Shown: positions 10,760-64,000, numbered from the stretch's first letter. The stretch: 64,000 nt of DNA from Candidatus Poseidoniaceae archaeon (GCA_943788295.1 CALSPS010000002.1:44442-108441), one strand, 5' to 3'. Made by a program: numbers and translations. Notes: generated by a model not told the origin, from the sequence alone.

Positions 10760-10779
10760 GACCCACCGAGGCGGTACTC

Positions 10780-14382: not shown

Positions 14383-14445
14383 GCTACGCCACACGCTCAA
14401 TAGAACATCAACACTTCTCCTGTTGGAGAATGACTCTGTTTAGAA

Positions 14446-18511: not shown

Positions 18512-19468
18512 TTGCGCCAATCCATCGACCAAGCCTCATTGATGGCGTGGTTTGCTGAGCATCAACGCAACTTGCCTTGGCGAGCCACGAAAGATCCGTG
18601 GGCCATTCTTCTCTCGGAAATTCTCTTGCAACAGACTCAAGTGAGTCGCGGCATTCTTTTTTGGCAACGCCTCTCCTCAAGGTACCCAACCGTTATCGAG
18701 ATGGCCTCATCCACCGAGGAGGAAGTGCTGCATCTATGGCAAGGTGCTGGGTACTACAGTCGAGCAAGACGTCTGTTTCAATTGTCCAAGCTCGTCTGTG
18801 AGTCTTCTGAACATGGAGGCTTCGATGGTGTTCTCCCAACCGATTCAAAGACCCTCAAAACTCTTCCAGGAATCGGCCCCTACACGGCCGCAGCGGTAGC
18901 AAGCATCGCCCATGGTGAGGCCGTCGCCTGTGTCGATGGGAACATTCGCAGAGTGATGGCGCGCCAAACTGCAAATGAGAACCCAAGTTCGAATTTGGTC
19001 CAAGAATGGGCTGATCAATCGCTTTGGAAAGCAGACGCTGGCAATTGGAATCAAGCGTTGATGGAACTGGGTGCAACCTTGTGCACGCCTAAGCGTCCTG
19101 ACTGTGCCGCCTGCCCCGTGCAGCCTTCATGCTCAGGCATGGCTGAACCAACTCGGTATCCAGCACCAAAAGTTCGCACCAAAAAGCGCCTTGATTTGAT
19201 GTGCATCCTCCGAGTAGATGAGAACGGTCTTCCTGAACTCGTTCAACGAGGTTCGACAGGGATCCTCGCAGGCATGTGGGGTCCAGTGATGGGCGAATCG
19301 CTTGATGTTGATTCTCTCACCTACCTTGGGGAAGTGCATCATGTTCTTTCTCACCGAGACATGCACATTCGTGTGTGGAAAGGCAAGGTGGAAACAGGCG
19401 TTGATCCAAAAAGCGTCCCGCTTTCGTCCTTGGATGTGAAAATACTCCGACTCGGTGACATAGATTGA
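18512..19468 (+). CDS. mutY: A/G-specific adenine DNA glycosylase (MutY).
   Basis: NLPWRATKDPWAILLSEILLQQTQV, HhH-GPD LPGIGPYTAAAVASIAHGE..A.VDGN..RV and the Fe-S loop CTPKRPDCAACPVQPSC. TTG start at 18512 is preceded by GGAGGTGG; ATG at 18542 (MAWFAEH) is an alternative. Confidence 0.9.
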   Translation: MRQSIDQASLMAWFAEHQRNLPWRATKDPWAILLSEILLQQTQVSRGILFWQRLSSRYPTVIEMASSTEEEVLHLWQGAGYYSRARRLFQLSKLVCESSEHGGFDGVLPTDSKTLKTLPGIGPYTAAAVASIAHGEAVACVDGNIRRVMARQTANENPSSNLVQEWADQSLWKADAGNWNQALMELGATLCTPKRPDCAACPVQPSCSGMAEPTRYPAPKVRTKKRLDLMCILRVDENGLPELVQRGSTGILAGMWGPVMGESLDVDSLTYLGEVHHVLSHRDMHIRVWKGKVETGVDPKSVPLSSLDVKILRLGDID

Positions 19469-47583: not shown

Positions 47584-47587
47584 AGGT

Positions 47588-48595
47588 ATGGCATTGCAAA
47601 TTCTTGTCACCGGTGGCGCTGGGTTCCTCGGCTCGTCCTTGTGCGAGGCTTTGATTGCAGATGGGCATCGAGTGGTGGCCTTAGACTCCTTGTTCCGAGG
47701 TTCGCTCGACAACATCGCCTCACTTGAATCTCATCCAGATTTTTTCTTTGTCCAGGGTGACGTGAGAAGCATTGAGGCACTGGATGCCTGTGCTGAAATG
47801 CTGGGCGGTCTCGACCTCATCTATCACCTGGCTGCAATTAATGGGACCAAATGGTTTCATGAAGCAGCCCATTCCGTGATTGATGTCAACATCAATGGGA
47901 CCTTGAGAACCCTTGAATTAGCTATGGCGCACGACGCTCGGTATGTTTTGGCCTCATCTCCCGAAGCGTTTGGAGAGGCGGAAATCCAGCCGATCAAGAA
48001 TGGAAACCCAATGTCGTTCACCGACCCACAGGTCCATCAACGCCACTCCTATGGTGCGAGCAAGTACCTCGATGAAGTCGCGGCACAACACGCTGCACGC
48101 GACGGTTTAGATGTTCGAATTGTGCGGCCCTTCAATGCCTACGGCCCTCGTTTGAACGGGGGCGCCTACGGGCAAGTTGTGGCGATGTTCTTTGAGGCCA
48201 TCCTCTCTTCGAATCCAATAGAGATTCATAATCAGGGCACCCAAACGCGCTCGTTCACGTGGATTGATGACATCACCGATGGATTCCTCAAAGCAGGACT
48301 TACGCCAGATGACGCTTCCAAACGCTTGAGCAGTGTGGCGTTCAACATTGGTTCTTCAGAGGAAGTCAGCATCACAGAATTGCAAGAAAAAATCTACAGA
48401 ATTGTCCAAAGCGATTCAAAATGGACCTCGGCCTTACCTGAGGTTAAGTTCACTCCTGGGTACCATGGTGACGCTCAACGACGGTTGCCAGATGCTTCAT
48501 TGAGTCAGTCGTTGCTTGACTGGAAGCCAACCACTAGCCTCGATGAAGGGCTGGCGTTCATGTGGGCTCGTCTGCGTGATGATCAGCGGTTGTAG
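47588..48595 (+). CDS. NAD-dependent nucleotide-sugar epimerase/dehydratase (UDP-glucuronate decarboxylase / dTDP-glucose dehydratase-like).
   Basis: ATG 47588 preceded by GAAGGT. ILVTGGAGFLGSSL and catalytic YGASK. Confidence 0.8.
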   Translation: MALQILVTGGAGFLGSSLCEALIADGHRVVALDSLFRGSLDNIASLESHPDFFFVQGDVRSIEALDACAEMLGGLDLIYHLAAINGTKWFHEAAHSVIDVNINGTLRTLELAMAHDARYVLASSPEAFGEAEIQPIKNGNPMSFTDPQVHQRHSYGASKYLDEVAAQHAARDGLDVRIVRPFNAYGPRLNGGAYGQVVAMFFEAILSSNPIEIHNQGTQTRSFTWIDDITDGFLKAGLTPDDASKRLSSVAFNIGSSEEVSITELQEKIYRIVQSDSKWTSALPEVKFTPGYHGDAQRRLPDASLSQSLLDWKPTTSLDEGLAFMWARLRDDQRL

Positions 48596-49389
48596 TGCTT
48601 TTGCACCTTTTCACCCCAGCCGCTTGGGGCTGGAGATAACCGATCATGGCCGTGTTGGCACAGCACATCGAGACCTTCTGGTGGCAATGTTTGCTCCGTA
48701 GTCCACAGCGCCTTTACTCGAAGCACTGCCAATCGAGCTACGGCATCTGGAAGCGGGCGATCTTCTATGAATTCAACTTCGATGGCAGCTACAGCCTCAT
48801 TGATGAGCAGTGGTTCATCTGCATGATGGGTGAAGGCCGTCATGTTCCATTCGCTCTCATCGCTGGGCAATGGTGCCGCAGTTTCATCGACGGCTTTGAC
48901 GGTGGACAGATTCGCTGGCATCAGGTGGAGCATGGCTCGCTTCGTCGCTCTTAGGTTGTGCAATGTGTCCCGGTATGTTCCATCCCGATTGCAACTGAAA
49001 GAGGCAATAAGCAACGGGGGGCCGGTGGATACAGCCATCACCGAAGTGTACGGTGCGAGATTGAAATGGCCGTTTTCATCTTGAGTTGAAGCGACGATCA
49101 GTGGTCGTGGGGACAGGATGCCAGACAGCCATCCTGCGCGAACAGCGTGGTCAAGTTGGTCAGCATCCAGCCTGCGAGCATCGCTCAAGGAGTGCGTCGG
49201 TGCAGGTGTGAACCATGCATCGAGTTTGCCGTTTCCAAGTTCTTCTATGGCGTGTTCATTGAACGCGATGTAACTTCGCCATGCATCGAGTTCGGAATCT
49301 TCCCCACGCTCGGTTTTCCGAGCAATCGATGCTTCTGCATAGGCATTGCATTTTTTCAAATAATCAACAATGACGCCCTTTTCATCCAT
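48583..49389 (-). CDS. Flavin reductase-like (FMN-binding split-barrel) domain protein with an extra N-terminal helical region.
   Basis: SPRPLIVASTQDENGHFNLAPYTSVMAVSTGPPLLIASFS resembles the Flavin_Reduct core. The 3' end overlaps the convergent epimerase gene by 13 nt. Confidence 0.5.
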   Translation of the reverse strand: MDEKGVIVDYLKKCNAYAEASIARKTERGEDSELDAWRSYIAFNEHAIEELGNGKLDAWFTPAPTHSLSDARRLDADQLDHAVRAGWLSGILSPRPLIVASTQDENGHFNLAPYTSVMAVSTGPPLLIASFSCNRDGTYRDTLHNLRATKRAMLHLMPANLSTVKAVDETAAPLPSDESEWNMTAFTHHADEPLLINEAVAAIEVEFIEDRPLPDAVARLAVLRVKALWTTEQTLPPEGLDVLCQHGHDRLSPAPSGWGEKVQKHYNR

Positions 49390-49872
49390 TCAATCCTCTC
49401 CATTTGTTGTGCTTTCTCGACCGCCTTTGCGTTCGTACTCTTCTCGAGTTGAGTGGTACCGTGCGGGTGTTCCGACCCATACCTCGTTTTTTGGAAGGTT
49501 ACGTGTGAGGGTGGCCCCGGCTCCAAGAACTGAATTTTCACCGATGCTCACGCCAGCCACCACTGTGGCTCCACCTCCAACCACTGCTCCAGAAGCGACT
49601 CGGACGGGCAACCATTTGGTTGAATCCTTCGAGGGTGGATAGAGATCGTTCAGGAGCGTTGCATTTGGCCCGATGAACACATTGCTGCCAAGAATCGATC
49701 CATCAGCGATGTAAGCCCCTCCTTGAATCCGGCAACCATTGCCAAGCCGCACGTTTCTTCCAATGTGCGCAAGTGCGCCGATTGAACACTCACGGCCAAC
49801 CGTCAGTCCTTCTCCAAGGTGACAAGGGCTCCACGCAACGCTTTCTGCGCCAACGTCGATTCTTTCGTTCAT
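49390..49872 (-). CDS. Hexapeptide-repeat (left-handed beta-helix) acyl/acetyltransferase.
   Basis: Repeated [LIV]G motifs: IGRNVRLGNGCRIQGGAYIADGSILGSNVFIGPNA and GAVVGGGATVVAGVSIGENSVLGAGATL. The stop abuts the next gene's ATG. Confidence 0.8.
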   Translation of the reverse strand: MNERIDVGAESVAWSPCHLGEGLTVGRECSIGALAHIGRNVRLGNGCRIQGGAYIADGSILGSNVFIGPNATLLNDLYPPSKDSTKWLPVRVASGAVVGGGATVVAGVSIGENSVLGAGATLTRNLPKNEVWVGTPARYHSTREEYERKGGRESTTNGED

Positions 49873-50566: not shown

Positions 50567-50998
50567 ATGGTCGCATCGCGTATGTCTCGACGTTCTCGTC
50601 GGTACTTCAAGCGCATACAGCGTGTGACGACCAAGTTTGATCTTCAGGCCATAGCCAGCTCGATTCAAACTGATTTGGACAAAAGAAACGTGTCGTACGA
50701 TGAGGCTCTCACACTGGGCAACTTGATTCAACACCGTGCCGATCAGTTGCCCGGGGACACCATTGTCTATGCGATTTCAGACCGTGACGCTTACCGGCGC
50801 ACCCTCGAACTCTATCTTCGCGACGCCTTGCTCACACGCACTGAACAACTGCTTCTTTGGGAGGAGCGACGTCGATTAGGGATTTCAGAGCAAGAGCATG
50901 ATCGCCTCCTCCACCAATTGCTGTTGCAGTGGAAGTCACAAGGCAAGCGAGTCACCATTGACCGCTTTGACAAACCGGGAGGGGAAGCCTCTGCGTGA
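50567..50998 (+). CDS. Small basic cytoplasmic protein, unknown function; first gene of the same-strand block leading into the archaellum operon.
   Basis: 143-aa ORF with an Arg-rich N-terminus (SRMSRRSRRYFKR) and a helical C-half (LLTRTEQLLLWEERRRLGISEQEHDRLL). I recognise no family. Confidence 0.45.
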   Translation: MVASRMSRRSRRYFKRIQRVTTKFDLQAIASSIQTDLDKRNVSYDEALTLGNLIQHRADQLPGDTIVYAISDRDAYRRTLELYLRDALLTRTEQLLLWEERRRLGISEQEHDRLLHQLLLQWKSQGKRVTIDRFDKPGGEASA

Positions 50999-53900
50999 AC
51001 ACCGCTCCTCAACGACGAAGCTTGCTTTGGCGTTGGTCATCCTCTTCTTGGTCCCAATGGCCACTCCCCTGATTGGGAGCAGTGGCGCTCAAACTTCGGG
51101 CAGGGCTGCACCTGACTTTGGTGTCACCCTCCTGACCTTTAGCGGAGCAGGATCGATTGACCGCGGGGTTGGAATTTATCTCGAACCAGCAGAACATGAT
51201 GTGCGAGTTGTTGTTCGAAACACAGGCGATTTGAGCGGAAGTGCGTCCCTGCAACTCGTTCACAAAGGCTCGCCTACATCCGGCGAGTACATCGTGACCA
51301 CCATCGCCCTGGGGTCCATTCCTGCGCTCACCACTTCCAATCCAATCGTTATTCCTTGGACAGCCACCACCGGGGACGCTCAAACGCTCTTTGCCCGTGT
51401 CTCTGGCGCAGGTGACAGCAACCCGGGCAACAACGAACAACGCAAGGATTTCGATGTCAAAAACAACCACAGCGGAATCACAACCGATGACAACCTCCCG
51501 GACATTTCACCTGGCGAAACAGAAGTTGGTATCACTCGCACCATGAAGACATTCAATGTCTCGGTTCGAAATGCTGGGGTGAAAACAATTTCAGCAGTGA
51601 TGAATATAACCGTGACCGATTCGAACGACCCCTCCACTTCCTTCACGTTCTGGTCGAACACCCAGACGCTTCAAGCAGGCTCCCTGTTTTCCGCCTCGGG
51701 TGTTGAGAATTTGACCTACTCGTTCGATTCTTCCACCTTTAGTGGCCTTTGGGAGATGACCTTCACGGTGACCTACAACGGTACAATGTGGAATTACAAC
51801 GAAACTGTTGATTCATTCACGGCACGATTCTCCAACTATACAGCCTCCTTGTCTTCGCTGGGCGACCGCTCCATCGAACCGGGTCAAACGGGAACCCTCA
51901 CGTTCCTTCTGAAGAACACAGGTGGCTTGATGGATTCCTATCGCATACAATCGATCAGCGCTTCGCCCGTCAGTCGAAGTTGGGCCGACACCTCACTTGT
52001 CACCACATCCACTCCCACGATTGCCCCTGGCGCAACGACCTCCATCGCCATTGCCGTGACGGTTCCAGTGGACGAAAACAGGACCAATGCGACCTCCATC
52101 ACACTCACTCTTCTGTCGCTTCAAGACGGATACACTCTGGTGACAACCGCTGTGGTCCAAGCTGGCGAGTCCTACCTTGCATCAATCGAAATGCCAAGCA
52201 CCACGACCATGCTCAAACCAGGCGTTTCAGCCTCGGTGATGGCCAACATCACCAATGAGGGGAACGTAGGCGGAGAATTCACCTTTGATTGTGGCCTCTC
52301 CGTGGCTGCAGTGAACTGGGTGTTGGACCTTCAAGGTCAGCCATGCGAGGAAGTTTCGATGTACATCAATCGTTCCCAAACCATTCAAGTTCCAATCGAC
52401 ATCAAGGTTCCACCAATCAAGAGCCCGTTGGATCCTGGCGAATTCAATCTGGCAGGCCAACCGCTCCAAGTTTGGTTGCAGGTTCAGGCAAATGGTGGCG
52501 GCCTCCCAGTTCAAAACTCCTCCAACATCGAAGTCCTTCCAACGATTGTGGTGGACCCAGGTTTGCCTGTTGAGGAAATGACCTTGACCGCAGAAGATGT
52601 AATTGCAGCAAGAAACGGTCAAGGCCTCGAAGACATCTTGTCGCTTGATGTCGAAGTCCGACACAATTTGTTTTCCAACATTGATGAAACACTCTCCGCT
52701 GAAGTTGTGGTGTCGAGCATTTCTTTCCTAGCAGCAAACACTGGCGGTTTCACCGAAGCCGAACGTTGGTCCGCCTCAGTTTCTCCACCAAGTTTGACCG
52801 GACTGCGCCCGGGCGATACGCAACCGGCAATCCTCGCCATTCAAGGTCCCGATGATGACTATCCCTTGGCAGGTACGCTCACCCTCTCAGTGACTGTGAC
52901 GCCCTTCCTCGGTGGCGTGCACACTGGTAGCGGCGTTGGCGCCACGTCAGTCACACGAAACTTATCGATCATCATTCCAACCGTCTACGGTGCGGATATT
53001 CTAGAAGACGGACCGGTCGATGTGATGGTCGGTGTCCAAACTCCTGTGGCCTTCCAACTGGCAAACACCGGAAACGACCTCACATCTTACCGATTGCGAG
53101 TGGCAGATGTACCAAGCGACTGGACTGTTGAATTCAATGGAACCACTGACACAATCGATAACCTCTCTGCGGATGTTGCTGACCACCCAGATGTCGGAGG
53201 TGCTCACAAAACTATTGTTGAGTTGCTGATCACAACCGACCCCTTTGTTCCAGCAAATTCGATTATCCCACTCACCCTTACGGTTGAACACCGAGACACA
53301 GGCGAGATCATCACCGAACACATTCTGCCGATTCGAGTTGGTGAAATCCGCAATGGTACTCTTTTCCCGCTGACCCAAACTCTATCTCTGGCACCTACGG
53401 ATGTGGGCGAATTCAAGACCATCAAGATCACAAACACTGGAAACGCTCCAACGACCTTCTATGTCTGGCTTGACAACAGCGAAGCAGGCGACGTCATGTT
53501 CGAACTTGATTCGAATCCATCGATGTTAATCGCTCCCAATTACGAGGACATCATCAAGGTGAGGGCTACACCTTCCTCCACTGCCAGTGCTGATCAAAAC
53601 TACGTCACCACCGTTTGGGTCGAAGATTCAAGCGGCGTCGTCAACATGTCTGCAAACATTACAGCCAACATCACCAAGAGTTCGGACATTCAAGTCGAAG
53701 GCCCTCAGGTCGTTGCTGTCACACCTGGTGAAATGACCATGGTCGAGTTCAATGTGACCAACATTGGCAACCTTCAGGAGTCAGTGGTGGTCAAGCCTAC
53801 TGTTGAAGGAGAATGGTCAACCGATGTCAGTGAAATCGGCATGACCTTGTCGATCAACCAAACCATTGCAGGGCAGGTTGTTGTGAGCGTTCCAAGCCTC

Positions 53901-55901
53901 GGTGGCGAAACCACGTTGCTCGACGGTTCAGTGCACAACTTGACGATCTCAGTGTACGATGCCGATTCCTCCGCTTTCAAAACAAGCATAGTGATTCAAC
54001 TGAGGGTTGGTGCGCTGTTCACCTTGGAAGCAGAAGACTGGCCTACAGAGATGGAATTTTATCGCCAAGGCACACGAACATGGGAAGTGTCGTTGCTCAA
54101 CACTGGAAACCGAGATGTTGAGGTTGAAGTCGGTTACGTCATTCATGCACCCGGTCTGACCATCCAATCGACGGATTGGGCAATGGTTTCAGACGCTCCA
54201 ACCACGCTTTTATTGCCAATTGGTGTCCCTGTGACTCATATCTTTAGCGTCGAGGCTCTGAATTTCGAACCCGATTTGTCGACAACTGCAGACTTCAAAA
54301 TCTACTACCAGCCAAGCGATGCGCTGGTCGAAGGAAACGCCTCGTTCGCAACTCAACTCAAGATGTCTCGGTTCTTCAGCACTGGCGAAATTGTGCTTCG
54401 CCCGGAAGTCGGTGACCCACCATTGGACATCGACCTGACGTATTCTCACATTCCAAACGGCCAAGCATTGAGCGCTGCTTATGAGCTTGAATTGTGCGGC
54501 GCTACCCGCATGCTGGACTTCAGTTCTTTGAACCTGAACGAAGCAGACTACCCATGGTCATTCACAGTCATCCTCCCAGATGCCAACAACACGGAAATCA
54601 CTTTGCCGCTTGAGTCCTCTTCTTGTGCCACTGGTACCCAAGGCGAGGCGGCCAGAATCTCTCTGCCAGAACGCAGTGCGTGGGACACAACCGACCCGAT
54701 TAAGATCCGAGTCCAAACCCCCGTTCGTCCAAACATCCTCTCTGGAGATGGATGGGACTTAGAATTCCGTTTGTACCATCCTACGGAGAACGCCGGTTAC
54801 ACGAATTTCGTTCCAGAAACCTTCAGTTTTGCCTTGGATGTCTTTGCAGATCCGCTGGTCGAAGCAATGGATGAGGTGAGTCTTGCTGAGGGTGAAGAAT
54901 ACGACCTTACGCTTACCGTGCTCAACGCTGGTACAGCATCAGCAATCGGTATCGATGTGGCGCTTGTATGCTCTGACGCAGTGATTCTCAATATCCCAAC
55001 AAACCCGAGTGGTGGACCAATGATTGGTCTGCTTGGACCGGGCCAATCGGTAGAACTTACATGGGTCATCCAACCGAATGCCATCGATTGGTGGATTCAA
55101 TCCAAATCTTCAACCTGCACCGCAACCGTCGATGCCGTGTACATGGCAAAGAACGTTGTAGGCAATGACGTTCGCACCATTGAACTTGATGTCGAATCGT
55201 CATCACCAGGTGTATCGACCAGCTTCATCGCACTCATCATTTGTTTCCTCACATCGTTCATTCTTTTGCGCTTAACAGGTCAAAATGAGAAATTCCGCCT
55301 TCTATCGGTCTACTCGGGTGTGCTTGGCTTCGGCTTCGCGTTCCACGTCCTTGACGTTCCATTCTGGGGGCTTTCCGTGCTTCTGCTCGCAGCCCTTTGG
55401 ATTTGGCGAATGAGTTGGGCCAGCGCTGAAGAGTTCAAACTGATTCACGAAGATTACCAAAGAGCCCGCCGTGGTGTTTCCACGCTTTATGCGGATCACT
55501 TCGATGCTCTGCGTGACAGCAGAAGACAACTCAGCGTCATTCTCGCCGTGCCGGTGTTGGGATTCTTGGTGGTTGTCCTCGGCCTACCTCCACAAATCTA
55601 CAACGACCAAAACAACCTTGTTTCCCTGGTCGTTTATGTCACCATTGTCATGCTTGGCGTTTGGATGATCATCCTCCGCGCTGACCGTGCTTACGGTAAT
55701 CTCTATGGTCGCTTGACGGACATCGAGGTCAAGGCCACTCGCATCGAGCGCGACCTTGGCGACCCGGCGCGCCTGTTCAACGAACTGGCTAACGATGGCT
55801 TAGATTTGGACGAAATCTTTGGAGAACTTTCCGCTACTGCAACCGTTGGCTCCATCGTTTCCGGTGAGGCTCCAACAGAGGAGGTGAACGACGATGTCTA
55901 A
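50898..55901 (+). CDS. Giant envelope protein (about 1640-1667 aa) with at least 9 CARDB/NEW3-like beta-sandwich modules followed by a C-terminal 5-helix membrane domain and an acidic tail. Start uncertain.
   Basis: Signal-like KLALALVILFLVPMATPLIG. Recurrent xVxNxGN motifs: VVVRNTGDLSG, VSVRNAGVKT, LLKNTGGLMD, ANITNEGNVG, QLANTGNDLT, KITNTGNAPT, NVTNIGNLQE, SLLNTGNRDV, TVLNAGTASA. Hydrophobic helices lie at nt about 55214-55680. The annotated ATG overlaps the upstream ORF by 101 nt; an in-frame TTG at 50967 is possible. Confidence 0.8.
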   Translation: MIASSTNCCCSGSHKASESPLTALTNREGKPLREHRSSTTKLALALVILFLVPMATPLIGSSGAQTSGRAAPDFGVTLLTFSGAGSIDRGVGIYLEPAEHDVRVVVRNTGDLSGSASLQLVHKGSPTSGEYIVTTIALGSIPALTTSNPIVIPWTATTGDAQTLFARVSGAGDSNPGNNEQRKDFDVKNNHSGITTDDNLPDISPGETEVGITRTMKTFNVSVRNAGVKTISAVMNITVTDSNDPSTSFTFWSNTQTLQAGSLFSASGVENLTYSFDSSTFSGLWEMTFTVTYNGTMWNYNETVDSFTARFSNYTASLSSLGDRSIEPGQTGTLTFLLKNTGGLMDSYRIQSISASPVSRSWADTSLVTTSTPTIAPGATTSIAIAVTVPVDENRTNATSITLTLLSLQDGYTLVTTAVVQAGESYLASIEMPSTTTMLKPGVSASVMANITNEGNVGGEFTFDCGLSVAAVNWVLDLQGQPCEEVSMYINRSQTIQVPIDIKVPPIKSPLDPGEFNLAGQPLQVWLQVQANGGGLPVQNSSNIEVLPTIVVDPGLPVEEMTLTAEDVIAARNGQGLEDILSLDVEVRHNLFSNIDETLSAEVVVSSISFLAANTGGFTEAERWSASVSPPSLTGLRPGDTQPAILAIQGPDDDYPLAGTLTLSVTVTPFLGGVHTGSGVGATSVTRNLSIIIPTVYGADILEDGPVDVMVGVQTPVAFQLANTGNDLTSYRLRVADVPSDWTVEFNGTTDTIDNLSADVADHPDVGGAHKTIVELLITTDPFVPANSIIPLTLTVEHRDTGEIITEHILPIRVGEIRNGTLFPLTQTLSLAPTDVGEFKTIKITNTGNAPTTFYVWLDNSEAGDVMFELDSNPSMLIAPNYEDIIKVRATPSSTASADQNYVTTVWVEDSSGVVNMSANITANITKSSDIQVEGPQVVAVTPGEMTMVEFNVTNIGNLQESVVVKPTVEGEWSTDVSEIGMTLSINQTIAGQVVVSVPSLGGETTLLDGSVHNLTISVYDADSSAFKTSIVIQLRVGALFTLEAEDWPTEMEFYRQGTRTWEVSLLNTGNRDVEVEVGYVIHAPGLTIQSTDWAMVSDAPTTLLLPIGVPVTHIFSVEALNFEPDLSTTADFKIYYQPSDALVEGNASFATQLKMSRFFSTGEIVLRPEVGDPPLDIDLTYSHIPNGQALSAAYELELCGATRMLDFSSLNLNEADYPWSFTVILPDANNTEITLPLESSSCATGTQGEAARISLPERSAWDTTDPIKIRVQTPVRPNILSGDGWDLEFRLYHPTENAGYTNFVPETFSFALDVFADPLVEAMDEVSLAEGEEYDLTLTVLNAGTASAIGIDVALVCSDAVILNIPTNPSGGPMIGLLGPGQSVELTWVIQPNAIDWWIQSKSSTCTATVDAVYMAKNVVGNDVRTIELDVESSSPGVSTSFIALIICFLTSFILLRLTGQNEKFRLLSVYSGVLGFGFAFHVLDVPFWGLSVLLLAALWIWRMSWASAEEFKLIHEDYQRARRGVSTLYADHFDALRDSRRQLSVILAVPVLGFLVVVLGLPPQIYNDQNNLVSLVVYVTIVMLGVWMIILRADRAYGNLYGRLTDIEVKATRIERDLGDPARLFNELANDGLDLDEIFGELSATATVGSIVSGEAPTEEVNDDV

Positions 55902-56955
55902 GCAAGATCTTGATGTCATCGACGACCCAGATATGCTGCTTGACGAAGTCGATGCAGGATTCGAGGTTCCTAATGCGGAATTGGATGAATCGGTGGCGAC
56001 AACCAGTGAGATGTCCGAGGGTGAAGTCGAGGAAGCGCGGGCTGCTATCGCAGCAAGCAAAGATTCGGCAGACCGCTTGATTTCTGCATCGAGAGAACTC
56101 GAATCGCTTGTCTTTGGCGTCATACAAGACGAGGGCAATTCGTTAGCCGGAACCGAAGTTGACATCGCAGACGCAAAACAATTCCTCCACACGCACAACC
56201 TCCGAAAGGCCCGCAAGTCGGTCAAGAAAGCCGAACAATCACTTGCACTGCTTGAGGAAGATGTTCTTCATTTGCGCCGAAACATCGCTATGCTTCACCG
56301 ACTCTTGAGTGAGAAAAAAATCAACGAATCGGAAGTAGAAACCATCCTCCTGCGTTTGAGATCTGCAACCGGTGCTGCAGAAATTGGTGATGTGGCCATC
56401 GCTGCAGGCGAAGTCGAACACCTTGTCGATGACCTGATTGGCGGCAACACATCCACACTCAACCCCTTCTTATTCCGCCACTTCTGGCTCGGTCTTGACA
56501 CTCGATGGCCTGCTGGTGGCGATGAAGGCGTGTTGATCGTGCGGATCATCAACGATGGCCCAGTAGCCATGCCAAACATGCGACTCGCTCCTCCTGTACC
56601 AGAGGGCTGGACTTGCGTTCCTTCTTCGGTTGACCTTCCAATCATTGCACCTGGCGGAAACCTACCGTTGCGGTTTGAAGTCAAAGCAAACCGAAGGTAT
56701 GGGGCGGATGAAATTCCGTTGTCAAGAAAACTCGCTATTGCAACTTCATACGAAATGCGTACAGGTGAAATCACAGCCACTATTCGTGCGCAAAACCGCT
56801 CGATGGAACCCCTCCAAGACATCGTGTTGTCGCCGTGGATACCACCCGGTTTTACAACACCTAAGGTCCCCTTCATCAATCGTCTCGCACCAGACGAAGT
56901 CGCTCTTATTCGCATGCCTCTGCGCATCAAAATCGGTTCGGGAGGCAACGCCTGA
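55894..56955 (+). CDS. Cytoplasmic protein with an acidic N-terminus, a helical/coiled-coil middle, an NPFL motif and C-terminal NEW3/CARDB-like beta-sandwich(es). Translationally coupled to the giant gene.
   Basis: ATGTCTAA overlap with the upstream stop (55894-55901). No signal peptide or [88 protein letters not shown]. Confidence 0.7.
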
Positions 56956-56983
56956 ACCACTCCAATTCCACCCTACGTGGGGG

Positions 56984-56992
56984 ATACAAAAA
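56984..56992 (+). promoter_or_regulatory. A-rich TATA-like element upstream of arlB1 (weak call).
   Basis: GGGGATACAAAAAAAACAAAAAATGGTGAAAAATATG. The element centre is about 26 nt from ATG 57014, which would make the archaellin mRNA leaderless. Confidence 0.25.
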
Positions 56993-57013
56993 AAACAAAA
57001 AATGGTGAAAAAT

Positions 57014-57574
57014 ATGAAAGAAAATACGAACGAAAACAGCGATAACCTCGCTGCAATTGGTATTGGTGCAATGATTGTCTTCATTGCCCTGATTCTTGTT
57101 GCGGCGGTTGCAGCAGCGGTCATTATTCAGACTGCAGAACAATTGCAACAAAACGCCCAGTCCACTGGCGAAGAAACAACTGACTTGTTGTCCTCCAAGG
57201 TGAACATCAAGGGTGCAGTGATTACCGGCACTGGTGCAAACCAGGTCTACATCACATTCGAACTCGCACCGGGATCTGACTCTGTTACAGCAAGCACTGT
57301 GGCATGGTCGATCATGTGCAGCGGTACCCCAAGTGGTACTGACTACGGAACCTTCGGTGCCGCATTGGAAGTTGGCGGCGGTACTCTTACTGGCGGCCTC
57401 CTCAATCCAGGTACAACCTACACAATGGAAATCACAGCCGCTGGCGGCCTTGCCACCTGCGTACCAACAGCAAATCAAGACCATTCATTGATGATTCAAT
57501 CCGGAAAGGGTGGATTCACCTACGAATTGCTCAACTACGGTGGTAACATCGCAGCAGGCGAGGTGATTGTATGA
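57014..57574 (+). CDS. arlB: Archaellin (archaeal flagellin) 1.
   Basis: Class III signal plus conserved hydrophobic N-terminus: [49 protein letters not shown]. An alternative ATG lies at 57002. The ORF-track start at 56630 overlaps the preceding gene. Confidence 0.9.
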
Positions 57575-58152
57575 AGTCCATCAACAATGAAGATCCACAA
57601 AACGACACAGTTGCAGCGATCGGTATTGGTGCAATGATTGTGTTCATCGCGCTTATCCTTGTTGCAGCAGTTGCAGCAGCAGTGATTATTCAAACCGCTG
57701 AACAACTCCAACAAAACGCTCAGAAGACCGGTGAAGACACCGCTGACAACATGGCTGGTAAAGTTATGATCAACTCAATTTACGTTGACACCAACGCTGC
57801 TGGAGAGGATTACCTCCTCTACGTCCGCTTGGCTCCTGGCAGCGAAGCGACAACCACCACGACCATCTCTTACCAGGTGTTCTGTCCAAACGGTGTTGCA
57901 GAAGGTGAACTTCTCGCTAGCGACGTTGCTCCAATGACCACTGGTACCTTTGGAGTAGCCACAATGGCTCCTTCAACTGGGTTCATTATGACCATCGATG
58001 GAAACGAGGGCGGAGCTGATTGCAGCCCCGACGCTCAAAGCGGCGGAAACCCAATCGCATCGGCACAATTGTTCATTCACGTCGGAAAGGGTGGCACAAC
58101 CTACGAAACCCTAACCATCGACAGCAGTGACGCCGGAAGCCGAATTGTCTGA
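57571..58152 (+). CDS. arlB: Archaellin (archaeal flagellin) 2.
   Basis: [55 protein letters not shown] overlap with the arlB1 stop. Confidence 0.9.
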
Positions 58153-58159
58153 TGTTCAT

Positions 58160-58192
58160 CTAAGGGCCATGCGCAACATTGCGCACCCTTAG
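58160..58192 (+). promoter_or_regulatory. Strong interrupted RNA stem-loop (7 + 6 bp) immediately after the second archaellin gene.
   Basis: CTAAGGG cca TGCGCA acat TGCGCA CCCTTAG starts 8 nt after the arlB2 stop. GAGGAGG and the ATG at 58206 follow it. Confidence 0.6.
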
Positions 58193-58205
58193 AGGAGGAA
58201 TTATC

Positions 58206-59039
58206 ATGGCATGGCCATTTGGCAACAGTGCAAATGAGGACATTGATGAAGACGCAGCTCTCACCGAAGATCGACTCAAAATAATGGCAAACATCGCCAT
58301 TGAGCAGGTCCCTCTCCCTGAAGAGGGTGAACTCGGTGAGGAAGATGCGTGGACCATCTCTCCAGGTCCTACAAAAGCACGCCTCAACAGCATCGGCAGT
58401 GTGCCGAGCGTCGCAGCAAGCCTCGCTCCAGCACCCGCCACTCCTGTGAACGCCACAGTCGACACCTCTGGACTTGAACGCATGATCAGCAGCCGCCTCG
58501 ACATGGTCGAGGATGTGCTCCGGAATGTCGAAGTTCGTCTAGAAACGACCTCTGAAGCACCCGCAGCAGAAGGCGAGGCATCCGAAGACGGTGAAGACCC
58601 AACTGCGCTTGATGGAGACATGATTGTCACCGCAAGCGGAGAAGTGATCTCCGTCACAGGCAACGACCGACTGAAGGAAGTCGATGAAGCGCCCTTGGTG
58701 GAATTGTACGAAGCGCAAGCTCTCGCTGCAAATCCATTCTTGCACGCTCCATCGCATGGTGCGACCACTGCTGGTAACAGCGTGGGTGCACCGACAGTTT
58801 CTGCCCTCTTGCTCGACAACATGTCGGGTATGGCGGCAGTCAGTTTCACTCAGAAGGCCATGTCTTCTGGTATGCTGAACGACGAAGAAGGTCGGTCTGT
58901 TTTGGCAATTGTTCAACTTGCAGCACCCGGTGAAGCCGAGGCTGCGCTTGATGATCATCTGCCGCACAAGGATTTGCTAACGTTCTCATCACTCGTCAGT
59001 TCCTGGCGAAGTGTGAGTTCTCTCCGAGGTGGAGCCTGA
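58206..59039 (+). CDS. Acidic hypothetical protein occupying the arlC/D/E position of the archaellum operon.
   Basis: ATG 58206 sits 7 nt after GAGGAGG; the track's TTG at 58179 lies inside the hairpin. No TM. Acidic N-terminus, helical RMISSRLDMVEDVLRNVEVRLE, VELYEAQALAANPFLH. The antisense 229-aa ORF is compositional. Confidence 0.6.
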   Translation: MAWPFGNSANEDIDEDAALTEDRLKIMANIAIEQVPLPEEGELGEEDAWTISPGPTKARLNSIGSVPSVAASLAPAPATPVNATVDTSGLERMISSRLDMVEDVLRNVEVRLETTSEAPAAEGEASEDGEDPTALDGDMIVTASGEVISVTGNDRLKEVDEAPLVELYEAQALAANPFLHAPSHGATTAGNSVGAPTVSALLLDNMSGMAAVSFTQKAMSSGMLNDEEGRSVLAIVQLAAPGEAEAALDDHLPHKDLLTFSSLVSSWRSVSSLRGGA

Positions 59040-59040
59040 A

Positions 59041-59682
59041 ATGGCTGGCTCGGTGGGTATTGGTGGCCTCATTATTGGGGTGTCGTTATTGGTCGTGTTT
59101 TCCATGGCCGTTCAAACGATTGGAAATCAGTTTGAATCCTCAATGGATTCGATTGAAGCCGCTGCTGAGCCTCTACCGAGCTTCACCGTTGATTCGAGTG
59201 ACATCTGGCTTTTCGCCCTTGAAGACATCACCATCACGAGCGGAGGAACAGATTACGTCAACGGGACCCTTGTTGCGTCCTCGTGTACAGGGTTTAGCGC
59301 AAGTTTCACAGTTGACAGCAATGGAGTCATCGACGCCGTGTCCATCACCAGCACCGGCGATTGTTCGACATCCACTCCTGTCATCTCTTTTGGAACACCC
59401 GCTCAGACACCTACACTTTCTGCAACACTTACGCCTGTGATGAAGACATACGTCTTTGCCGTACTCACCAACGATGGTGCAGTGACCCTCCCTACGGAGG
59501 ATGTTTGGCTGTTCCTCGATGGAACAGATCCGCAAACTCTCTCAGCATCGAACCCGATTGGCTTGTCCAGCGGGTATTGGTATTCTGGGGAAACACTTGA
59601 CTTGCGTTGGGAATTATCGCCGACAAACCATGCCCGCCTCGCCTTCACCTATGGCGGTACAACAGTGGGTACTACGCTCTGA
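59041..59682 (+). CDS. arlF: ArlF (FlaF)-like archaellum stator / S-layer-binding protein.
   Basis: N-terminal archaellin-like hydrophobic helix MAGSVGIGGLIIGVSLLVVFSMAV followed by a beta-rich domain. Position in the operon supports the call. GAGGTGGAG precedes the ATG. Confidence 0.55.
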   Translation: MAGSVGIGGLIIGVSLLVVFSMAVQTIGNQFESSMDSIEAAAEPLPSFTVDSSDIWLFALEDITITSGGTDYVNGTLVASSCTGFSASFTVDSNGVIDAVSITSTGDCSTSTPVISFGTPAQTPTLSATLTPVMKTYVFAVLTNDGAVTLPTEDVWLFLDGTDPQTLSASNPIGLSSGYWYSGETLDLRWELSPTNHARLAFTYGGTTVGTTL

Positions 59683-59691
59683 GGACTGGCT

Positions 59692-60183
59692 ATGGCAGAC
59701 GGTGGCGCATCAACCTTCATCATGCTCATCACGGGCTTGTTGATTTCAAGTTCTGTAAGTGCACTGCTGATCACAGAGTGGTCGGCAATGGCGAGAACGG
59801 CTCAAAAAAATCAGCAGGGCATCACCTTCACGGGTGAACTCGGCTTGGATTTTGCCGGCGACCCAATGATGGTGGATGTTGACACCAGCGGTTCGACACC
59901 GTCCATCACCTTCTACCTGCAAAACACCGGAATCCATCCACTGGATGAACAACTCATCGCCGTGCTCGTGAACGGCGAAGCGCCAACAAGCGTCTCCGCC
60001 ACAATCACTGGAACCACTTGGGATCCAAATGAACTCGCAGAAATCGTGATTGAAGATACCTCATACGGCACCACACCGTTTGCGTCTGGCGAAGATGTGA
60101 ACCTCTACGCTATTGCCACCTCAGAAGTTGTGGGTGGCATGTCCTCAAGTGCATCAATGAATGTCGAGGTGAGGCTCTCTTGA
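59692..60183 (+). CDS. arlG: ArlG (FlaG)-like archaellum protein.
   Basis: MADGGASTFIMLITGLLISSSVSALLI hydrophobic N-terminus plus a beta-rich domain of about 120 aa. Position between arlF and arlH. Confidence 0.55.
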   Translation: MADGGASTFIMLITGLLISSSVSALLITEWSAMARTAQKNQQGITFTGELGLDFAGDPMMVDVDTSGSTPSITFYLQNTGIHPLDEQLIAVLVNGEAPTSVSATITGTTWDPNELAEIVIEDTSYGTTPFASGEDVNLYAIATSEVVGGMSSSASMNVEVRLS

Positions 60184-60908
60184 AGGAGGATCCATTCCTA
60201 ACGGCTCACAAGCCGATAGAAGACGGTTTTCCTTTCGATCTGGAAACAGACTCCTTGGGCGATTCCATGGGATTGCGGTTACCAAACCGTTCCCTGTATG
60301 TCCTCCAAGGAGGCGTGGGTGGCGGTAAATCACTCATCTCACAACGACTTGCCTATGGTATGGTCGAAAACGGTGTGAAAGTACTCGTTATCACAACTGA
60401 ACTCACGACTCGCGGATGGATTGAGCAAATGGAATCCATTGGTTACGGTATCACAGATGCCATTCGGGAAGGCCAACTGATGGTCTTCTCTCGCTTTGGA
60501 ACTATTGCAGAAGCCCTACCGGATGTCGGACTTAACGAACTGCTTGAATCAGAGGCAATCGCTCTCGCAGACGTCGTGATTATCGATGCAGCGAGTTCAC
60601 TGATGCCTGATTCGCTCGACGAATCTCAACGTTTTACCATGATGCAGCGACTTCGTCGCATATGTGCCGATGGTCGCTCGCTCATGTTGTGCGTTGACCC
60701 TGAAGAAATGGACCACAAAATGATGCACACCTTGCGTGCATCGGCAGAAATTGTTCTTGATCTCACCACCGCAATGATCGGTGGAGAAATTAAGAGAAAC
60801 ATCGTGGTTACGAGGTTTTTGAGGGCAGCAGGCCCTGTTCAAACCTCGGTTGGATGGCGTGTTGAGCCGAGCATGGGCTTCATCGTCGACATTACGGCGG
60901 TCAGCTGA
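60180..60908 (+). CDS. arlH: ArlH (FlaH), KaiC-like ATP-binding archaellum motor component.
   Basis: SLYVLQGGVGGGKSLISQRLAYGMVENG (Walker A) and VVIIDA. TTG start overlaps the arlG stop (cTTGA) and is preceded by GAGGTGAGG. Confidence 0.8.
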   Translation: MKEDPFLTAHKPIEDGFPFDLETDSLGDSMGLRLPNRSLYVLQGGVGGGKSLISQRLAYGMVENGVKVLVITTELTTRGWIEQMESIGYGITDAIREGQLMVFSRFGTIAEALPDVGLNELLESEAIALADVVIIDAASSLMPDSLDESQRFTMMQRLRRICADGRSLMLCVDPEEMDHKMMHTLRASAEIVLDLTTAMIGGEIKRNIVVTRFLRAAGPVQTSVGWRVEPSMGFIVDITAVS

Positions 60909-60922
60909 AGGAGGTACCATGA

Positions 60923-62638
60923 ATGTCCGATGATCCTCCATTCGCAAAAGGTGACCTCAACGGGGTCATGGCAGCCCACCAGCACGTCGCAGACTGGGTT
61001 CGTGATTTTGAGGCTCGCTACGGCTCTCGTCCGATCTACTATGGCGAACTTGACAGGGATGCCAAAAAAGAACGTCCCCTTAACCTCATTTACCTTGCCA
61101 AAGAACCTATTTTCATTCACATTTACGAACCTCCTGCCGATGAAGAGGGTGGGGGCCAAATTTTGTGGTTTGGTCTTGAGCCTCAACTCACAGAAGAGGA
61201 AGAAAACATTCGTAGAGAATTAACTGAAACCCTCCTCCAAGAAGCGCCAGCTGCTCCCTCATTTACAACTGATAATGAGTTTGAAAACATCCTCCGTCAG
61301 ATGGTTGCTCGTTACACCGTTCTCGATACAGAAATTGGTGTCGCACCTCGGCGCCAAGGGCGTCTTTGGGAAATGCTGGGGCTAGAAGATCGGCGCCTGG
61401 TTGTCAATCAAGAGCAACGCACACGCTTGGAGTACATCGTGATTCGTGACCTCATTCGAAACGGACCGCTTGAACCCCTTCTTTCTGATGAGATGCTGGA
61501 AGATATTCACTCAATTGGCCTGAAACACGTCCACATGGATCACAAGGTGTTCGGCATGGTCACATCCAACATTCGCTTTAGGGACCGAGAAATTCTTTCC
61601 CGTTTCCTCAGAGCAATGTCTGAGCGTATTGGGCGTCCTGTTTCGGACAACAAGCCAATTATTGATGGCGCATTGCTCGATGGCTCTCGTATCAACATCA
61701 TTTTCTCCGATGACGTGTCCATGTTAGGACCATCATTCACGATTCGTAAGTTTGCTGAAGAAACAATTTCCATCACACAACTCATTGCTTGGGGCACCAT
61801 TTCTTCCCAGGTCGCAGCCTACATCTGGATTTGCCTTGAATACGGTATGTCGGTTCTTGTGTCCGGGGAAACTGCATCTGGTAAAACCACAACCCTCAAC
61901 GCTATTCTCCCTTTTATTGACCACAATGTCAAGATTTACTCGGCAGAAGACACGCCTGAAGTCAAGGTGCGCCACAAGATTTGGCAGCGCCTCGTGACCC
62001 GTTCATCAAAGAACGAAGAATCCCGCGTGGAAATGTTCGATTTGCTCAAGGCAGCACTGCGTAGCCGACCACGGTACATCATCATTGGTGAAATTCGTGG
62101 TGTTGAAGGAGCGACAGCGTTCCAGGCAATGCAGACGGGCCACCCGGTCATTGCGACGTTCCACGCATCGTCAATTGTGAAGATGATTCAACGGTTTACC
62201 GGTGACCCAATCAATGTTCCAATCCGTTTCTTCGATAACTTAAATTTCGCTATTTTCCAAGAGGTCGTCGAAGCACCTGGGGGAGGAATCGCCCGTCGTG
62301 TTACAGGGATTGACGAAGTGATTGGATACAACAAACACAGTGACGGTGTGTTGACCCGTGGTATGTTCGAATGGGATCCTGTGAAGGACAAACACTACTT
62401 CCGCGGAATGTTTCAGAGCCATTTGCTTGAAAACAAAATTGCTGCAATGGCAGGTTTTGCAAATAAGCGTGATATTTACGATGAAATGCTCAAGAGGGCA
62501 GAAGCGCTCCAGAGAATGGTTGATCGAGACCTTACCCATTACGATGACGTGTTTGATTTGCTTGGAATCTATTACAACAGCGGCTGGGAACACTTCGACC
62601 GTGCCGTCGATTCATGGAAGGGCATCAATCACGAGTGA
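60923..62638 (+). CDS. arlI: ArlI (FlaI), archaellum assembly/motor ATPase of the type II/IV secretion ATPase superfamily.
   Basis: VLVSGETASGKTTTLNAIL (Walker A), RPRYIIIGEIRGVEG (Walker B / Asp box) and TGHPVIATFHA (His box). GAAGGAGG precedes the ATG. Confidence 0.95.
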   Translation: MSDDPPFAKGDLNGVMAAHQHVADWVRDFEARYGSRPIYYGELDRDAKKERPLNLIYLAKEPIFIHIYEPPADEEGGGQILWFGLEPQLTEEEENIRRELTETLLQEAPAAPSFTTDNEFENILRQMVARYTVLDTEIGVAPRRQGRLWEMLGLEDRRLVVNQEQRTRLEYIVIRDLIRNGPLEPLLSDEMLEDIHSIGLKHVHMDHKVFGMVTSNIRFRDREILSRFLRAMSERIGRPVSDNKPIIDGALLDGSRINIIFSDDVSMLGPSFTIRKFAEETISITQLIAWGTISSQVAAYIWICLEYGMSVLVSGETASGKTTTLNAILPFIDHNVKIYSAEDTPEVKVRHKIWQRLVTRSSKNEESRVEMFDLLKAALRSRPRYIIIGEIRGVEGATAFQAMQTGHPVIATFHASSIVKMIQRFTGDPINVPIRFFDNLNFAIFQEVVEAPGGGIARRVTGIDEVIGYNKHSDGVLTRGMFEWDPVKDKHYFRGMFQSHLLENKIAAMAGFANKRDIYDEMLKRAEALQRMVDRDLTHYDDVFDLLGIYYNSGWEHFDRAVDSWKGINHE

Positions 62639-62648
62639 GGGATGATGG

Positions 62649-64000
62649 ATGCAGCGAATGTCGATGTGGCAAATCGCTTTACGGCGTCTTGAAATGCCCA
62701 TTTTGAATTTCCTTGCATACTTTGTAGGTGGTGCGGCTTTTGCAGGTTTGTTCTCCGCAGTTGTCATCATTCTCCTCACGGGTGGTATTTCGGAAGGGGC
62801 CTTGTTTTCCGGCTTCGCAGGGATCTTCCTTCTTTTGTTGCTTCCCACTCTTGCAGGTGGTGCAGCAATTGCTTTTCCCCTTCTCGATGTTCAACGCTCA
62901 GCAGCGTTGATTGAGAAAGAAATGCACATGTTCATCACTCGAATGGGCATTCTCTCCTTGGGTGAAGTGGGTGCCCAGTCTATTTTCGACATCCTCAAAC
63001 AAATGAGGGATTATGGCGAGTTGGCCAGTGAAGTTCAGCGAATTGAAACCCTTGTTGACAAGTGGCACACGTCGCTTCCAGAAGCTTCACGAATCGTTGC
63101 CCAACAAAGTCCGTCTCCATTGTGGGCTGATTTCCTCGACAGAATGGCGTTTTCCATTGAAGCAGGCCAACCAATCGATGAGTTCATGCGTTCCGAACAG
63201 GAAACAATTGCAGAACAGTACACGACTTTGTACGACACGCGTCTTGAATCTGTAGACACCATGAAGGAAATCTATGTGTCTCTTGTTTCTGCTGGATTGT
63301 TTGGCCTTGTGATCGCTGGAATTCACTTGGTGCTGTTCGAAGTTGGATCTGCAGGTGATCTTCCAATCGAAGTGGCGAGTCGTCTGCGGTTCCTTTTGTT
63401 AGCGGGTTTGTTGTTTACAGTAATCCAAGTTGGAGGAGTTTATGCGTTCAATTCGACCATCCCAGAAGACCCGACCTTCGCACGCGACGAAATGGACACT
63501 CCGTTTCGAATTAATTTTCTCAGGGCCCTCATTGGTGCCTCGCTCCTTTCGATTCTTCTCCTCGCCACCACCGTAATTATCATCCTAGCTTCTTGGCAAG
63601 AGGTCAGCAGCCAATGGGATCGGTACGGCTTACTTCTTTTTGCTGCCCCACTTTCCCCTATGCTTATTCCAGCATTTATGGTTGGCCGAGAAGAAAGTGC
63701 TGTTCTGCGCCGAGATGAAACTTATCCAGATTTTATCCGTGCTCTTGGAGGCACTGCACAAGCGCGTTCTGCCGAGCCTTCGGCCACCATCAAAGCCCTT
63801 CGTGGCATTGACTTTGGTGTCCTCGATGATTCCATCGACCGCTTGGAAAAGCGACTCTCGACCCGGATTAACTCGGATCGTGCTTGGGATTATTTTACCG
63901 CAGACACAAACTCTGCAGTCATTTCTCGATACACACGAATTTACATCGAAGGGTCACAATCGTCTGGCCAACCAGCAGGAACCGCAGAGATGGTTTCTCG
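62649..64000 (+). CDS. arlJ: ArlJ (FlaJ), polytopic archaellum platform protein; 3' end outside the window.
   Basis: Not in the ORF track because it has no stop in the window. My translation from ATG 62649 is open to base 64000: MQRMSMWQIALRRLEMPILNFLAYFVGG...EKEMHMFITRMGILSLGE...YPDFIRALGGTAQARS. This shows two T2SS-F-like cytoplasmic domains separated by TM helices. Confidence 0.8.
   Translation, partial: MQRMSMWQIALRRLEMPILNFLAYFVGGAAFAGLFSAVVIILLTGGISEGALFSGFAGIFLLLLLPTLAGGAAIAFPLLDVQRSAALIEKEMHMFITRMGILSLGEVGAQSIFDILKQMRDYGELASEVQRIETLVDKWHTSLPEASRIVAQQSPSPLWADFLDRMAFSIEAGQPIDEFMRSEQETIAEQYTTLYDTRLESVDTMKEIYVSLVSAGLFGLVIAGIHLVLFEVGSAGDLPIEVASRLRFLLLAGLLFTVIQVGGVYAFNSTIPEDPTFARDEMDTPFRINFLRALIGASLLSILLLATTVIIILASWQEVSSQWDRYGLLLFAAPLSPMLIPAFMVGREESAVLRRDETYPDFIRALGGTAQARSAEPSATIKALRGIDFGVLDDSIDRLEKRLSTRINSDRAWDYFTADTNSAVISRYTRIYIEGSQSSGQPAGTAEMVS

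Follow-up and report, generated by a model that had tools for sequence, protein, structure and literature searches.

In a 64,000-nucleotide (nt) stretch of a Candidatus (Ca.) Poseidoniaceae (Marine Group II a, MGIIa) genome (CALSPS010000002.1:44442-108441; hereafter the window), the archaellum (arl) gene cluster is headed by a gene for a giant envelope protein of ~1647 amino acids (aa), whose stop overlaps the start of a gene for a 353-aa, predicted cytoplasmic protein (p353). The two genes abut the archaellin genes in both families of the order Ca. Poseidoniales. Tentatively, and with somewhat less than even confidence, we read the pair as a lineage-specific, envelope-spanning accessory of the archaellum, in which the giant would contribute an S-layer-like outer frame and a five-helix membrane anchor, and p353 would be the cytoplasmic scaffold partner that stands in for ArlX/ArlCDE. 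Marine Group II (MGII), the most abundant archaeal group in surface ocean waters, is uncultured, and whether its filament serves swimming or sticking is debated. A conserved, lineage-restricted pair that heads the cluster is an obvious candidate for the missing scaffold parts and offers structural biologists two defined proteins, though its value is tempered by the facts that the synteny has already been published and that the function is read from sequence.

Conservation of the pair beside the archaellin genes

From position 50567 to the end of the window, 11 genes lie on the plus strand, beginning with a small basic protein gene (small143, 50567-50998) and ending with an arlJ that the window cuts. 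A preliminary description of this DNA had counted 12 genes on one strand; the single strand was borne out, but the published operon (see below) has its 12th gene, for a 149-aa membrane protein, after arlJ and past the window end; this gene is found at 18578-19027 in the related locus L001. The giant (50958-55901 from its likely TTG start) and p353 (55894-56955) follow small143. As previously described, the TAA of the giant runs into the ATG of p353 as ATGTCTAA (55894-55901), and this stop-start overlap, or a spacing of 0-1 nt, is kept in both families.

Conservation was followed in 80 species-level Poseidoniaceae loci recovered with p353, which carry the names Poseidoniaceae, Poseidoniales or unspecific Euryarchaeota/Methanobacteriota and include one from the original MG-II genome (CM001443). 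All window proteins were searched with tblastn, and counts refer to loci in which the contig reaches the position concerned. The giant lies directly ahead of p353 in 77/77 of these loci, arlB follows p353 directly in 73/73, and arlI was present in 50/50. The contexts of divergent, Thalassarchaeaceae-type loci were obtained from exact-protein look-ups and one metagenome scan, and the same arrangement recurs there, with arlB next to p353 in all 26 readable cases and the giant next to p353 in all 25. The divergent giant (1560-1720 aa) is 24% identical to the window giant over residues 1-1621, and the divergent p353 homologue (~30% identity) lies 0-1 nt from it; the order then runs through arlB, arlB, a homologue (~30%) of an uncharacterized gene (unk286), arlF to arlJ and a prepilin-peptidase-like gene.

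The preliminary description had proposed a three-gene module. Giant and p353 indeed stay with arlB, but small143 was found in 58/58 Poseidoniaceae loci (70-99% identity) and in 0/14 divergent loci, so the conserved unit comprises two genes. The small143 protein (143 aa) is highly conserved, basic (isoelectric point, pI, 9.9) and devoid of transmembrane (TM) helices, and neither Pfam, NCBIfam nor the Protein Data Bank (PDB) yielded a match to it, a profile search included. It is a Poseidoniaceae-specific addition, probably coupled to the giant, and could be, for instance, a regulator or chaperone.

The genes that flank the cluster differ between families. Upstream in Poseidoniaceae are AcnX, an epimerase, a flavin reductase, a hexapeptide transferase and a peroxiredoxin; in Thalassarchaeaceae-type loci the upstream genes are instead those for DUF373, PriL and a PPC-domain protein, with the peptidase-like gene and PolD-DP2 downstream, and these flanks are conserved among the divergent loci. 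Since Poseidoniaceae synteny runs far past the arl genes, gene order kept in that family alone proves little. The neighbourhood test suggested by the preliminary description is therefore carried by the comparison between families, in which giant and p353 remain beside arlB despite identities of only 24-30% and different flanks.

These data bear directly on a reading in which the giant is a general, S-layer-like surface glycoprotein and p353 its membrane-skeleton partner, their proximity to the arl genes being inherited synteny without a functional tie. The giant's size, acidity, glycosylation sequons, immunoglobulin-like (Ig-like) repeats and C-terminal anchor, described below, do resemble those of archaeal S-layer proteins, and within either family the conserved gene order continues well past the arl genes. 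Yet all flanking genes change between families while the pair still abuts arlB, and no copy of the p353 family was seen away from arlB, all 99 readable loci having it beside that gene. About half of Thalassarchaeaceae genera are reported to lack an archaellum operon, and on this reading the pair would be expected there too. We consider this explanation rather improbable.

Two complete giant-p353-arl loci occur in bins named as Alphaproteobacteria, L037 (CAXQWT010000116, Salipiger bermudensis) and L047 (CALDQY010000305, Rhodobiaceae bacterium); these bacterial labels likely reflect binning contamination in public records.

Architecture of the giant and p353

The reading frame of the giant is open from ATG 50898, but in many relatives it is closed until 43-88 nt ahead of the small143 stop. 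Most relatives carry a start codon 16 nt ahead of that stop, and the window and its 97% relative L002 have a common candidate start, a TTG at -40 (position 50958). The start is most likely this TTG rather than ATG 50898, which gives a 41-nt overlap with small143 and a protein of ~1647 aa; the longer overlap of 101 nt is probably an artefact of choosing the first ATG. The earlier picture of a 1667-aa giant overlapping the small gene thus keeps its overlap, at 17-41 nt, and loses some of its size. That the overlap is kept in Poseidoniaceae points to coupling of both genes.

Read from TTG 50958, the N-terminus has the parts of a Sec-type signal (a basic n-region, a hydrophobic core and GSSGA), and it is followed by an acidic ectodomain of ~1400 aa (pI 4.15) with 24 N-X-S/T N-glycosylation sequons. 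The preliminary description had labelled this protein CARDB/NEW3. NEW3 (PF10633) passes in the window protein, at 28.9 bits against a Pfam cut-off of 24.4, but CARDB, at 14.4 bits, falls under its cut-off. Among 12 diverse members of the giant family, Ig-like matches are distributed along the protein, with Ig_VWA7 and NEW3 each matching 10 members and FixG_C and CARDB each matching 9. The Sec signal would direct export of the giant, so that its Ig-like repeats would be displayed outside the cell.

Repeats of the CARDB, NEW3 and Ig-like kinds are typical of adhesins, and the giant may be one, co-inherited or co-regulated with an attachment archaellum, with p353 as its cytoplasmic anchor or signalling partner and neither protein in the motor. 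Rinke et al. argue for adhesion as the role of the filament in MGII archaea, which lack chemotaxis genes; the spacer ahead of arlB resembles an independent promoter region; and the ectodomain is fast-evolving, the giant being 24% identical between families compared with 69% for ArlI. However, the other large PKD/CARDB surface proteins of the window (7055-14400) are unlinked to the arl genes, and no paralogue of the giant occurs in the window. A five-helix anchor, a conserved loop and a coupled partner, all kept order-wide, exceed the needs of a plain adhesin, and without the pair the cluster would have no equivalent of ArlCDE or ArlX. On balance, we regard the adhesin explanation as unlikely but deserving serious weight.

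The C-terminal block of the giant contains five hydrophobic TM helices with basic residues in the predicted cytoplasmic segments, as the positive-inside rule would have it, and this topology, with its cytoplasmic loop, is kept across the order in both families. The most conserved parts of the whole protein are the loop after helix 3 and an amphipathic helix after helix 5, and the basic loop carries the conserved motif W-x-S-S-x-E-[FL]-x-x-I-H. A giant ending in five TM helices and an acidic tail had been predicted beforehand; the outside ectodomain, the five helices and the cytoplasmic loop held up, but the tail did not prove order-wide. In the topology proposed here, the five helices would hold the giant in the membrane, with the basic loop and the membrane-proximal helix facing the cytoplasm.

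A multi-pass membrane domain with a conserved cytoplasmic loop would also suit a role in biogenesis, in which the pair might serve as an export or assembly chaperone, as a platform for archaellin glycosylation or as a sensor that controls, through p353, the expression of the archaellum. Sugar-modifying genes lie just upstream in Poseidoniaceae, and the giant shows a weak likeness (E 0.27) to a seven-transmembrane receptor module. That match is far under significance, however, the sugar genes are unlinked to the cluster in the divergent family, and Pfam and NCBIfam scans detected neither an enzymatic nor a signalling domain in the two proteins. Such a role appears very improbable to us.

No PDB sequence relative of the giant was found. 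Proteins of ~250 aa that match its C-terminal domain were considered as stand-alone paralogues and rejected, as three of the four sampled contexts proved to be frameshifted giants in arl loci; the contig of the fourth is too short to tell. In three long-read 'pilon' assemblies (L115, L116 and L117) the giant is split into many short called genes, and in L117 this applies to most locus genes and not to the giant alone. The splitting is consistent with residual frameshift errors, which would make 'short' members of the family seem more numerous in protein databases than they are.

p353 has no hydrophobic or TM segment and no export signal. An AlphaFold model built from 29 sequences, including the divergent family, reached a mean predicted local distance difference test (pLDDT) score of 70.9 (an earlier run with 16 close homologues, at pLDDT 56, was too poor for use). 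In the model, a disordered, acidic N-terminus (residues 1-41) precedes a helical domain (42-182) and a beta-sandwich (197-345). NEW3 matches were found in 26/29 family members (best E 1.8e-5), and EzrA spectrin-like repeats matched weakly in 12-15 of the 29. A profile search among 1.84 billion representative proteins recovered 62 clusters of the p353 family, and the named clusters among those sampled belong to Poseidoniales or Thalassarchaeaceae. One profile match in the coiled-coil region, to 8qox_B (E 7e-4), was lost with a second profile and rejected as compositional; this chain is, we presume, SlaB.

A paralogous relationship between p353 and unk286 was likewise rejected (hhalign probability 1.4%, over a 16-column alignment around 'NPFL'). 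In both proteins a helical region ends with an invariant N/S-P-F-L motif, at residues 189-193 of p353 (~56458-56472) and 176-179 of unk286 (~58731-58742), and NPF[L] might be a shared docking motif.

The motor genes and a candidate scaffold

Assignments of the Arl proteins rest on Pfam and NCBIfam models. Both archaellins, arlB1 (57014-57574; PF01917, E 2e-23) and arlB2 (57571-58152; E 1.6e-19), exceed the Pfam cut-off. ATG 57014 is a better start for arlB1 than the alternative ATG 57002, judging from the alignment of arlB2, which begins at 57014, and from relatives. The arlH-arlI-arlJ core is present in that order: the motor ATPase arlI (60923-62638; NF058587) scores 677 bits, above the cut-off of 550; the KaiC-like ATPase arlH (60180-60908; NF052589, E 4e-52) scores 177 bits, under the cut-off of 215; and the platform protein arlJ (62649-64000; NF004704, E 3e-100) scores under its curated cut-off, with its sequence cut by the window end (the L001 protein has 600 aa). 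The remaining two motor genes also fall under curated cut-offs. These are arlG (59692-60183; NF052591, E 3e-13; PF01917, E 2e-8) and a gene for an ArlF-like stator protein (59029-59682, from GTG 59029 or ATG 59041; NF052590, a weak E of 1e-4); both products carry a TM helix at the N-terminus, and the two genes keep their place across loci. In the divergent family, a gene of 320-340 aa after arlJ (18924-19910 in L083, 18426-19454 in L081 and 18838-19797 in L100) has weak Peptidase_A24 and Arc_PepC_II matches and may encode an ArlK-like prepilin peptidase.

No cluster gene matched ArlC, ArlD, ArlE or ArlX in Pfam and NCBIfam scans, whether single proteins or whole families were searched. The arlC/D/E slot is occupied by unk286 (58206-59039), which encodes an acidic cytoplasmic protein of 277 aa from ATG 58206; the protein has no TM-like segment and is conserved in both families. 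The scans run placed the window protein in no family. Across the unk286 family, FlaC_arch (PF05377) matched faintly in 8 of 22 members (E 0.03-0.1, best 0.033) and Arch_fla_DE in none, and the p353 family gave matches to these domains in 0/29 members. unk286 may be a very diverged ArlC-like protein. As the preliminary description had stated, the window is also without che genes: none appeared among open reading frames (ORFs) of at least 150 aa over 1-50600 or among the locus genes scanned. MGII genomes have been reported to lack chemotaxis genes (PMC6461757, PMC6864105).

Taken with the architecture described above, these absences suggest how the pair might work. Giant and p353 would form a complex across the envelope beside the archaellum motor. 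Outside, the ectodomain would provide a fixed, S-layer-like structure for the ArlF/G stator to hold, or for the filament to pass through; inside, p353 would dock on the cytoplasmic loop of the giant and, perhaps with unk286, form a static scaffold in place of ArlX/ArlCDE. A bolder version, which we consider unlikely though worth stating, is that the motor scaffold of Poseidoniales is of a third kind, distinct from both ArlCDE and ArlX, with giant and p353 as a static frame that anchors the stator outside and forms a ring or cap inside. How ArlF/G stators are braced in the S-layer-less Thermoplasmatales is a stated open problem (PMC12448462), and a third scaffold, if real, would answer the question of archaellum bracing in a lineage related to archaea without a rigid S-layer.

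Several points weigh against an envelope-spanning accessory. The flanks are kept within each family, and the independent evidence for co-location amounts to one change of context plus deep divergence. The acidic cytoplasmic tail, which the preliminary description had offered as a contact site for the coupled protein, is confined to Poseidoniaceae and absent from the divergent family, and that role is not supported. Foldseek matches of the p353 model in the PDB were generic Ig-like and appendage-type beta-sandwiches, all of them with E above 0.001. The spacer between p353 and arlB has promoter-like elements of its own, and giant and p353 may be transcribed apart from the archaellins. We infer, rather than observe, that the giant binds p353, that both are located at the motor, that they contact ArlF/G or ArlH/I/J, and what is braced.

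The extended locus has been in print since 2019, with its upstream genes only as unannotated boxes. Tully et al. (Nat Commun 10:271, PMC6336850, Fig. 4) presented a "putative MGII motility operon" that includes orthologous proteins lacking annotations, noted that these unannotated orthologues are syntenic in MGIIa and MGIIb, and listed operons of 11-12 proteins and 13.8-14.6 kb in their Supplementary Table 3. The start of the SAT95 operon (PAJM01000030, 39983) coincides with the small143 start in L033 (35283 + 4701 - 1), and the end of the ARS60 operon (NYZH01000002, 58034) coincides with the small143 start in the reversed L029 (62452 - 4419 + 1). The published operon is thus the identical locus and begins at small143, with the small gene, the giant and p353 drawn as black 'hypothetical' boxes, and the preliminary claim that this arrangement is absent from any archaellum description does not survive. 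What that paper does not give is a domain architecture, a topology, the coupling of the genes or their distribution beyond MGII; nor does it set the pair, which spans the order, apart from the small gene, which is confined to MGIIa, or tie the pair to the missing ArlCDE/ArlX (PMC6336850).

Novelty is narrowed further by known proteins of similar design, since S-layer-like multi-Ig proteins had already been described in archaellum and type IV pilus loci (PMC4858521; bioRxiv 10.64898/2026.04.22.720090). In archaeal type IV pilus loci, additional genes that turn up repeatedly include those for intracellular coiled-coil proteins and for S-layer-like proteins anchored by a TM helix at the C-terminus (Makarova et al. 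2016, PMC4858521). Methanococcales archaellum loci contain S-layer-like multi-Ig proteins of arCOG05057, with a similar protein in Thermococcales, and the role suggested for them is a local adaptation of the envelope to the filament (bioRxiv 10.64898/2026.04.22.720090). The giant resembles such filament-locus proteins in its signal peptide, several Ig-like folds, C-terminal membrane anchor and invariant place in the arl locus; unlike them, it has five helices rather than one and a conserved cytoplasmic loop. With its 1650 aa and its constant coupling to a cytoplasmic partner, it is set beside arCOG05057 by description and not by sequence.

Comparisons on the cytoplasmic side are similarly mixed. 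p353 and unk286 are, like ArlX and ArlCDE, cytoplasmic, rich in coiled coil and encoded in the arl cluster, and unk286 holds the arlC/D/E slot. In contrast to ArlX, which has one TM helix, p353 and unk286 have none, and p353 is encoded upstream of arlB. ArlCDE, for their part, have CheF/CheY partners, which are absent from MGII and were not found among window ORFs of at least 150 aa. The SlaA/SlaB S-layer of Sulfolobales likewise combines a large, Ig-rich surface protein with a partner that has a beta-sandwich and a long coiled coil, a likeness of architecture only; SlaB sits outside the cell on a membrane anchor, whereas the predicted place of p353 is the cytoplasm.

Signals around the archaellin genes and other surface genes

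The layout around the archaellin genes agrees with the preliminary description. The gap before arlB1 measures 46 nt (from ATG 57002) or 58 nt (from ATG 57014), arlB1 and arlB2 overlap by 4 nt as ATGA (57571-57574), and a hairpin follows arlB2. In both families, a TTCCAC motif lies ~46-58 nt ahead of the arlB start (56965-56985 in the window; L001-L114), and the spacer (56956-57013) also holds an A-rich tract and GGTGA ahead of the ATG. Poseidoniaceae spacers have a short GC stem after TTCCAC, the arms of which vary yet stay complementary (CCCTC/GAGGG, CCCGC/GCGGG); divergent-family spacers have TAATATCATAAGTGATTA in its place. The stability of the spacer stem does not exceed that of shuffled sequence (z -0.06), and a scan for sigma-70 promoters and intrinsic terminators returned nothing above chance, with models that are not applicable to archaeal promoters. 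The spacer probably holds arlB's own promoter or leader, and the TTCCAC region may be a promoter or operator; a separate arlB promoter is also found in other archaea.

The hairpin after arlB2 (58159-58193) folds with a free energy (dG) of -22.8 kcal/mol (z -4.6; 0/200 shuffles fold as well). Poseidoniaceae relatives have equally strong hairpins in the same place but of unrelated sequence (z -2.9 to -4.2), with arms that differ among genera (CTAAGGG..CCCTTAG, CTGAGTCC..GGACTCAG and CTTGCTGTTGAGAA..TTCTCGATGGCAAG). The position is the same in L013, L033, L045, L069 and most Poseidoniaceae loci, and the hairpin always ends just ahead of the GGAGG of unk286; in divergent, Thalassarchaeaceae-type loci it is less evident. 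Such a structure fits an attenuator or messenger RNA 3'-end element that would part the abundant archaellin message from the accessory genes. Intergenic terminators have been pointed to for Pyrococcus furiosus (PMC10665913).

Elsewhere in the window, two adjacent genes on the minus strand (7055-10879 and 10780-14400) encode PKD/CARDB surface proteins of 1274 aa and 1206 aa that are not similar to the giant. A plus-strand ORF of 1726 aa (35642-40822), with an NAD synthase gene after it, had no Pfam match at E <= 0.001. A stand-alone KaiC-family ATPase (3713-4501, minus strand; E 5e-46) lies 46 kb from the arl cluster; Makarova et al. (PMC4858521) name KaiC-family proteins among the candidate regulators of type IV pilus systems in archaea. 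Finally, an NAD-dependent sugar epimerase/dehydratase, a flavin-reductase-like protein and a hexapeptide acyltransferase are encoded at 47543-49872 (2441-4561 in L115 and L116) and were present in all Poseidoniaceae examined; their products might together synthesize a modified sugar that is used on surface glycoproteins.

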